This document shows positions 221-844 of a DNA stretch of 64,000 nucleotides, piece after piece (position 1 is the first letter of the stretch; every line of letters starts with the position of its first letter). The position numbers and the translations under genes were made by a program. Source of the DNA: Convolutriloba macropyga (Eukaryota); the NCBI RefSeq assembly GCF_964194025.1, contig NC_134472.1:76260001-76324000 (forward strand), written 5' to 3'. The notes under the pieces are model-generated. The model was not told where the DNA came from and did no database searches. It saw nothing but the letters and a program-made list of their open reading frames with translations.

Positions 221-844
221 CTAAAAACTAATAACTTTAGTTAAAAAAACACTTATTTTATTTTTCTTGTTCTTCTTATAATCCTCATATACCTTGACTA
301 ATTCATTATATTCATCATTATCTATTTTATTATCATTCATTGATTTAGTATATAGTTTATTAAACTTATCACTAAACTGTTTAGCTAGAATATACATTTG
401 TGAATACTTTATAATTTTATTTCTTATTTTAGTATTAATTGTTTTTGATAATGAACCACAAACAGTTGCTGTAGCAAAAGCTGTGGGTATAGAATAAGGT
501 AATCCTATACCTGTTAATGCAACTGATGTTGTTGTTGCTGTTGTTGCAATTGATGATAATAGTATTTCTGTTATCTCAGCTACGTTAATATAATTTTTAT
601 ATCTACTTAACTTCTTATTATAATTATTAGTTTCAGTTTCATAATAATTTCTAATATCTTTTATAATGTTAATATTATTGTTAAATTTATTATTAGCTTG
701 AATCTTTTCATTTATCTGCTGTTCATTGACAGCAGCAGCTTCGCGCATCAACCGTTCCGATACTGATGATAAATCTGGATACAGTAAGCTCTCACTCGGT
801 GCTGTTGGATCAGTGAAACTACTTCGTAGATTGGTCATTTTCAT
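221..844 (-). CDS. Polinton membrane-associated protein (helix, hydrophobic hairpin, helix) with N-terminal PTAP and LYPDL motifs
   Basis: Intact 207-aa ORF with a central hydrophobic small-residue hairpin (ILLSSIATTATTTSVALTGIGLPYSIPTAFATATVCGSL) and C-terminal DNKIDNDEY. It resembles a recurrent invertebrate Maverick accessory protein. Confidence 0.75.
   Translation of the reverse strand: MKMTNLRSSFTDPTAPSESLLYPDLSSVSERLMREAAAVNEQQINEKIQANNKFNNNINIIKDIRNYYETETNNYNKKLSRYKNYINVAEITEILLSSIATTATTTSVALTGIGLPYSIPTAFATATVCGSLSKTINTKIRNKIIKYSQMYILAKQFSDKFNKLYTKSMNDNKIDNDEYNELVKVYEDYKKNKKNKISVFLTKVISF

Follow-up and report, generated by a model that had tools for sequence, protein, structure and literature searches.

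Most Polintons (or Mavericks) have not been caught as particles, and a central question of their biology is how they exit cells on the way to new hosts or into the germline. The locus examined here raises it for a Polinton gene on the minus strand of a 64,000-nt stretch of the Convolutriloba macropyga contig NC_134472.1, which is called the window below and provides the positions unless another locus is named. The gene encodes a protein of 207 amino acids (aa), P0001, whose residues 13-25 read PTAPSESLLYPDL (window 808-770, in an intact open reading frame (ORF)) and contain a PTAP motif of the class that binds TSG101 and a LYPDL motif of the class that binds ALIX, i.e., two late motifs of the kind that recruits ESCRT (endosomal sorting complexes that are required for transport). 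The original prediction, made from the letters alone, had described this tandem at these residues of a Polinton ORF, and both the re-read sequence and the Polinton markers around the gene (Table 1) bear it out. The late-motif tail is real and, as judged from sequence comparison, evidently constrained throughout a protein family that is divergent. It is quite likely to recruit ESCRT, because the motifs are conserved in homologs and both partners are encoded by the host, their pockets being largely kept. Late domains are well known as a viral device, so the novelty lies in the virus group and not in the mechanism.

The motif pair stands alone in the window. Its P[TS]AP is the sole one among the 128,002 residues of the six-frame translation, and only one combination of P[TS]AP and YPxL within 20 aa occurs in any frame, namely PTAPSESLLYPDL; given the composition of P0001 itself, both motifs would fall in the first 40 aa by chance with a probability of about 1e-6, a post hoc figure that is indicative only. 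Chance occurrence was rejected on the basis of the shuffle controls described below, the window-wide six-frame scan, and the motif profile of the tails.

Conservation of the late motifs in distant relatives

Relatives were collected from 1.84 billion cluster representatives with the core of P0001 (residues 41-207) as query, and since the tail and its motifs were excluded from this query, motif bias is excluded and circularity avoided. The search gave 271 matches, the best 150 of which were listed, and 48 of these were kept (at most 50% identity, at least 130 aa), the other 102 being short fragments or closer matches. These relatives are 24-50% identical to the P0001 core, with a median pairwise identity of 28% among themselves, and tail counts refer to 40 of them, the other eight being without a tail of at least 10 aa. 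Two further homolog searches (close copies dominant; 34 proteins) stand outside these counts, and seven of their proteins were added to the tree only.

Conservation of P(S/T)AP and YPxL in homologs, on which the original prediction had staked itself, was strongly borne out. The strict YPxL form is found in 22 of the 40 distant tails against a shuffled mean of 0.46 (maximum 4 in 5000 shuffles), and P[TS]AP in 10 against a mean of 0.08 (maximum 3). Looser forms are more frequent ([LIVM]YPx[LIVM] in 27 tails, YP in 34), whereas PPxY occurs in a single one, and none of these patterns appears in the remaining 8277 residues outside the tails (0/48 proteins). Proline follows 37 of the 55 tail tyrosines (Pro frequency 0.083), and among the 34 tails with YP, the residue before it is L/I/V/M in 31 and the residue at +3 is L/I/V in 27. 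The family trait is thus, on this comparison, an ALIX-type (L/I)YPx(L/I/V) motif with P(T/S)AP as an accessory, which also qualifies the tandem pair of the original prediction: both motif classes are enriched in the family, and the strict pair is present in six of the 40 tails.

A core-only tree of 48 rows (the 40 tailed relatives, P0001, and the seven added proteins) shows how the motifs have moved. YP-type motifs are present on both of its main branches; the order of PTAP and YP is flipped inside two well-supported clades (P0317 versus P0319/P0324, and P0258 versus P0220/P0232/P0331), and a fused LYP(S/T)AP form occurs in two separate clades. Apart from the motifs, the distant tails are dissimilar and vary in length. 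Such order swaps, fusion, and unalike tails are, at the level of sequence, the behaviour of functional linear motifs. A lineage-specific motif was also considered and ruled out, both main branches carrying the YP type.

Copies in the host genome

The host genome (1.18 Gb) holds at least 150 matches to P0001 (150 scored of 3314 first-look candidates). The family is highly abundant genome-wide and many copies are 95-99% identical, pointing to a recent expansion. In a set of close copies (the best 120 of 690 matches, 79-100% identity), P[TS]AP was kept in 108, YPxL in 109, and both in 99. In the 94 close copies measurable for both motifs and a core anchor, the spacing from PTAP to YP is always 9 aa, and the distance from YPDL to the core takes nine values between 27 and 47 aa; at 79-100% identity, however, these copies are too similar to reveal selection. 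The copy in the window is 207 aa long, and most close copies stop at 202 aa (window 221-238, minus strand). When the genome was searched with a distant homolog, nothing above about 32% identity was found, so a second, closer family was not seen. Outside the host, related loci were found neither in viral contigs (searched with P0001, P0235, and P0219) nor in metagenome contigs (searched with the core).

ESCRT partners encoded by the host

One UEV match and two ALIX_LYPXL_bnd genes were found in the host genome. The UEV exon aligns without gaps to residues 43-145 of human TSG101 (E 4e-28), and 12 of 16 positions of the TSG101 peptide pocket are identical, the other four being conservative. One V-domain exon matches human ALIX (E 1.4e-12), and the following exon opens with a Phe aligned to human F676, presumably a residue of the ALIX binding site. 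At the level of exon comparison, the host appears to encode TSG101 and ALIX with their binding residues largely kept. As both proteins are conserved in all animals, the presence of these partners is a necessary condition and no proof. The second ALIX_LYPXL_bnd gene (L034, G000:C12:13550338-13553634) is likely HD-PTP/PTPN23 and is another possible partner of YPxL.

Architecture and fold of the protein

An AlphaFold2 model built on a 48-row alignment (mean pLDDT, the confidence measure of the model, 87.8) comprises a coil at residues 1-25 and helices at 26-111, 115-170, and 176-206. The pLDDT of the tail is 64-65 for residues 1-20, with nothing below 50, and 85 at residues 21-30; hence, the disordered N-terminus of the original prediction is retained as a tail that is modelled as unstructured with medium confidence. 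The tip of the hairpin (about residues 85-133) is apolar and rich in Gly, Ala, and Thr, and its turn residues are kept across the 48 rows (G112 81%, G114 73%, P120 79%). Conservation within the family is highest in a D-x2-I-x3-E-(Y/F) loop ahead of the last helix (D171 96%, E178 98%). This loop, which may bind metal to judge from its sequence, is reminiscent of half an EF-hand or of a TerB-type motif, and weak DUF533 and EF-hand_STIM1 matches were seen.

Pfam searches of P0001 gave noise only. Weak Pfam matches were obtained at the level of individual members (RTX N-terminal domain in 8/48, best E 3.2e-5; SLATT_1 in 3/48, best E 0.002; SLATT_fungal in 1/48), the SLATT cut-off being reached by none of the 48, and the family profile matched the translocator AopB (E 3.3e-4). 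In the PDB, P0001 had nothing under E 0.1 by sequence, and by fold no Foldseek match reached E 0.001. VIA-align scored highest against coiled coils of the BAR and bMERB type, but the Z of 10.3 is within the range expected of helical bundles. The top Foldseek matches were uncharacterised proteins of invertebrate iridoviruses (E 1.5e-4 to 5e-4), namely Liz-CrIV, IIV22, and Armadillidium iridescent virus, which are possible homologs. Among the iridovirus matches are A0A5B8RH66, S6DF61, and A0A068QKD3. The top 35 also include four viral models annotated as SLATT (E 6e-3 to 0.3, weak). In layout (helix, apolar hairpin, helix), the protein is modelled as SLATT-like.

Proposed function and alternative explanations

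The reading that we favour, with somewhat more confidence than doubt and by analogy with known viruses, is that of a membrane-anchored ESCRT adaptor serving non-lytic egress of particles wrapped in host membrane. The apolar hairpin is predicted to insert into a membrane with both ends cytosolic, so that the tail would face ESCRT. The main route would be the binding of LYPxL to the ALIX V domain, as known late-domain biology suggests, and a redundant one the binding of P(T/S)AP to TSG101/ESCRT-I, probably gained or lost repeatedly. ESCRT-III, as established for such motifs, would then sever a bud pointing away from the cytosol. In the last and least supported step, capsids, proposed as cargo by analogy, might be tethered by the C-terminal helix or by the helical rod on the cytosolic side, and particles would then bud at the plasma membrane or into multivesicular bodies, in the manner of the bluetongue virus protein NS3.

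Several points weigh against this adaptor reading. Fourteen of the 40 distant tails are without either strict motif (nine of these still carry YP), five are without any YP or P(T/S)AP, and the strict tandem pair is confined to six. The shuffle control preserves composition and ignores shared ancestry, which the tree answers in part. The hairpin of P0001 has the lowest hydrophobicity of the 48 rows (maximum KD19 1.21, median 1.96), so the label of membrane protein, as used in the original prediction, holds for the family (maximum KD19 of at least 1.6 in 42/48 rows) more than for P0001 itself, which is weak in this respect. The structural match to NS3 is also weak (Foldseek rank 25, E 0.19, TM-score 0.22), and the Orbi_NS3 profile is found in 1/25 members (E 0.033). 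The assignment of the distant homologs to Polintons is based on ESM Atlas clusters. The neighbours there (score 0.93) are clusters without names, of viral and molluscan origin, and one of them is mostly Preplasmiviricota; this is the commonest phylum, the phylum being known for 12/159 members. Moreover, Polinton assembly is assumed to be nuclear, which would call for an additional step into the cytosol. Finally, the motifs indicate ESCRT and not egress, and the purpose of the recruitment may be egress, pore turnover, entry, or work at the nuclear envelope.

Among the other purposes, the best placed, if unlikely, is that of a SLATT-like pore (viroporin) whose motifs recruit ESCRT to sort it into multivesicular bodies or to shed it in vesicles, in which case its toxicity would be timed or bound host membrane proteins down-regulated, and the cargo would not be capsids. 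The member-level matches to pore-forming hairpins (RTX N-terminal domain, SLATT_1), the AopB match, and the four SLATT-annotated models agree with such a pore, although each of these matches is weak and such as any hairpin rich in Gly, Ala, and Thr typically gives, and no specific solved fold was matched. For SLATT proteins of Polinton-like viruses, the proposal has been made that they form pores serving endosomal escape or lysis (PMC12220804; 10.64898/2026.10.13.758929; like most sources cited below, available in part, to which statements refer). A pore would be compatible with egress, NS3 being both a viroporin and an egress adaptor.

It is improbable that ESCRT is recruited for nuclear egress or remodelling, acting on the nuclear envelope or on internal membranes induced by the virus, instead of for release from the cell. 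Integrating double-stranded DNA (dsDNA) viruses likely assemble in the nucleus, but P(T/S)AP/ESCRT-I is mostly a plasma-membrane and endosomal route. Herpesvirus nuclear egress, which uses ESCRT-III, speaks for this possibility in the parts of the sources available (PMC12456135, PMC8231873).

A virion-borne entry protein, i.e., an endosomal-escape pore whose motifs steer the incoming particle along the endosomal pathway, is very improbable, even if such a role has been hypothesised for the SLATT proteins of cryptophyte Polinton-like viruses (PMC12220804). The 207-aa gene adjoins the capsid module, as such a protein might, but a particle inside an endosome cannot expose its tail to cytosolic ESCRT before crossing the membrane. 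The neighbouring amphipathic 90-aa ORF would also be a better candidate for membrane lysis.

It is most improbable, lastly, that YPxL is an AP-2/AP-3 YxxPhi sorting signal (which YPDL also fits) or an intramolecular packing motif, possibly lying on the helix in view of the pLDDT of 85 at residues 21-30, with PTAP incidental to Pro-rich tails and absent from 30/40 of the distant ones, since Pro at +1, which YxxPhi does not need, is strongly selected (YPx-hydrophobic in 29 distant tails versus non-Pro Yxx-hydrophobic in 3), exact P[TS]AP occurs 10 times versus 7 for all near-miss classes summed, and a YP-to-core distance of 6-57 aa argues against fixed packing. The budding of equine infectious anaemia virus has been discussed in connection with both AP-2 and ALIX.

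Read as an ESCRT-recruiting tail common to the family, these motifs give an unannotated Polinton gene a candidate function, and the prediction follows that the place to seek Polinton particles would be fractions of extracellular vesicles, not naked virions. The broader proposal that animal Polintons generally encode a dedicated NS3-like egress protein, which would draw in ALIX and TSG101 and let capsids out in host vesicles, is more tentative and falls slightly on the doubtful side. If true, it would account for the spread of Polintons from cell to cell and into the germline while the host survives, and such a protein may also be present in invertebrate iridoviruses.

The surrounding Polinton

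The gene lies in an element of about 16.0 kb bounded by long terminal inverted repeats (TIRs), which is a Polinton/Maverick (adintovirus) by several markers: a protein-primed DNA polymerase B (pPolB), an rve integrase, the TIRs, an A32 ATPase, and a double-jelly-roll capsid. Features within the window are collected in Table 1. The partner TIR lies about 7.1-7.6 kb left of the window (L032:2443-2883), and the 10 kb left of the window also contains the ATPase (Pox_A32, PF04665, E 7.3e-6) and the capsid (PF21738, E 3.7e-19), whose major capsid frame (L032:8147-9388, plus strand) has an in-frame stop near L032:9110 in this copy.

Table 1. Positions of the late motifs, the 207-aa gene, and other features of the element in the window
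Feature	Position	Strand	Evidence or remark
207-aa Polinton gene (P0001): tail with late domains, long helical hairpin (apolar at the tip), C-terminal helix	221..844	-	
PTAP, residues 13-16, TSG101 UEV-type late motif	797..808	-	P[TS]AP in 108/120 close homologs, 10/40 distant tails
LYPDL, residues 21-25, ALIX V-domain-type late motif	770..784	-	YPxL in 109/120 close homologs, 22/40 distant tails
Apolar helical hairpin, about residues 85-133, turn G112-x-G114...P120, predicted membrane-inserting	446..592	-	AlphaFold2, hydropathy, conservation
Conserved loop D171-x2-I174-x3-E178, between helices 2 and 3	311..334	-	48 rows
235-aa upstream ORF, overlapping the start of the 207-aa gene	819..1526	-	
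90-aa convergent ORF, 3' part	1..124	+	Whole ORF L001:1129-1401, start 148 bases left of the window
Retroviral-type integrase	1535..2404	-	PF00665 (rve), E 3.5e-6, below the curated cut-off
Protein-primed DNA polymerase B (pPolB)	5054..8206	+	PF03175, E 6.3e-19
Right terminal inverted repeat	8028..8468	.	blastn, 442 bp, 98.2%

Two ORFs (L032:5768-7192 and 7393-8133) are candidates for a protease and a minor capsid protein; neither has Pfam support, and they are put as putative adenain-like protease and minor capsid by resemblance only. Two ATPase-like frames are apparent in the element: an A32-like one (L032:3985-5412, minus strand), which showed no Walker A in the frame that was read, and another P-loop domain that shares its frame with the protease-like ORF (L032:5768-7192, plus strand). 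A 130-aa ORF (L032:5259-5669, minus strand) with a single strong N-terminal hydrophobic segment and no Pfam match is a second candidate membrane protein. The 90-aa convergent ORF neighbours the 207-aa gene in 30/30 loci examined. Its N-terminal helix is amphipathic and basic, its C-terminus is of the form GxGLYL, and the ORF resembles the adintovirus 'cupiennin' or protein VI-like membrane-lytic protein.

Comparison with known systems

In the literature on Polintons, Mavericks, adintoviruses, and SLATT proteins in connection with ESCRT, late domains, or egress, from which most subscription journals are missing, no report of ESCRT in Polintons was found, in line with the original prediction, whose author was not aware of a description of this function for Polintons. 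The available part of a study of adintoviruses treats membrane-active genes and a SLATT label without mention of late domains (PMC8502044), and the pz and pw genes of vertebrate Mavericks are uncharacterised in that of another (PMC8097293). The ESCRT recruitment proposed originally is likely. The description of the virus as nominally non-enveloped calls for care, since enveloped particles have already been proposed for nematode Mavericks from a gB-like fusogen, with ESCRT and budding unmentioned in the part available (10.1101/2022.07.12.499685).

In layout, the protein is like the two-transmembrane SLATT proteins of Polintons, Polinton-like viruses, and giant viruses (helix, apolar hairpin, helix), but unlike them as described, late motifs being unmentioned in the SLATT literature examined, as far as its available parts go. 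Adintovirus maps for Hydra and corals bear SLATT labels (PMC8502044 Supplementary Fig. S2), which may or may not denote the 207-aa gene. In its motifs, the tail is like HIV-1 p6 (PTAP and LYPxnL) and the p9 protein of equine infectious anaemia virus (YPDL), which share these motif classes, likewise side by side in a tail without structure, according to the accessible text (PMC8402826, PMC4880917). Retroviruses, however, carry them on the Gag structural polyprotein, whereas the Polinton has them on a separate hairpin protein.

Hepatitis E virus ORF3 carries PSAP. This virus and hepatitis A virus, like the Polinton on the proposed reading, are non-enveloped and leave in host membrane via ALIX or TSG101, but they are RNA viruses. 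The motifs of hepatitis A virus lie in a capsid protein, with YPX3L in VP2 and YPXnL used for quasi-envelopment in the part of the source available (PMC8402826). The iridovirus tiger frog virus is likewise a double-jelly-roll dsDNA virus with late motifs for ALIX and TSG101, which recruits ALIX, TSG101, and NEDD4 via the late-domain proteins VP031L, VP065L, and VP093L, as far as the available text goes (PMC4880917); its motifs are, in contrast, spread over three separate proteins, and the iridovirus proteins matched by Foldseek are uncharacterised.

The greatest overall likeness is to bluetongue virus NS3, a driver of non-lytic egress that combines PSAP and PPRY motifs with a coiled coil and two transmembrane segments, according to the accessible part of the source (PMC7409164). 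Like the Polinton protein, it is about 200-230 aa long, with cytosolic N-terminal late motifs, a coiled coil, and a two-helix membrane anchor, and belongs to a virus classed as non-enveloped. NS3 differs from the Polinton family in combining PSAP with PPRY (NEDD4) and in its luminal loop, which is glycosylated and 21 aa long, whereas the family has mainly LYPxL, PPxY in a single tail, and a tight Gly/Pro turn. NS3 is therefore treated as an analogue, without a claim of homology, and would serve as the closest working model for the Polinton protein.
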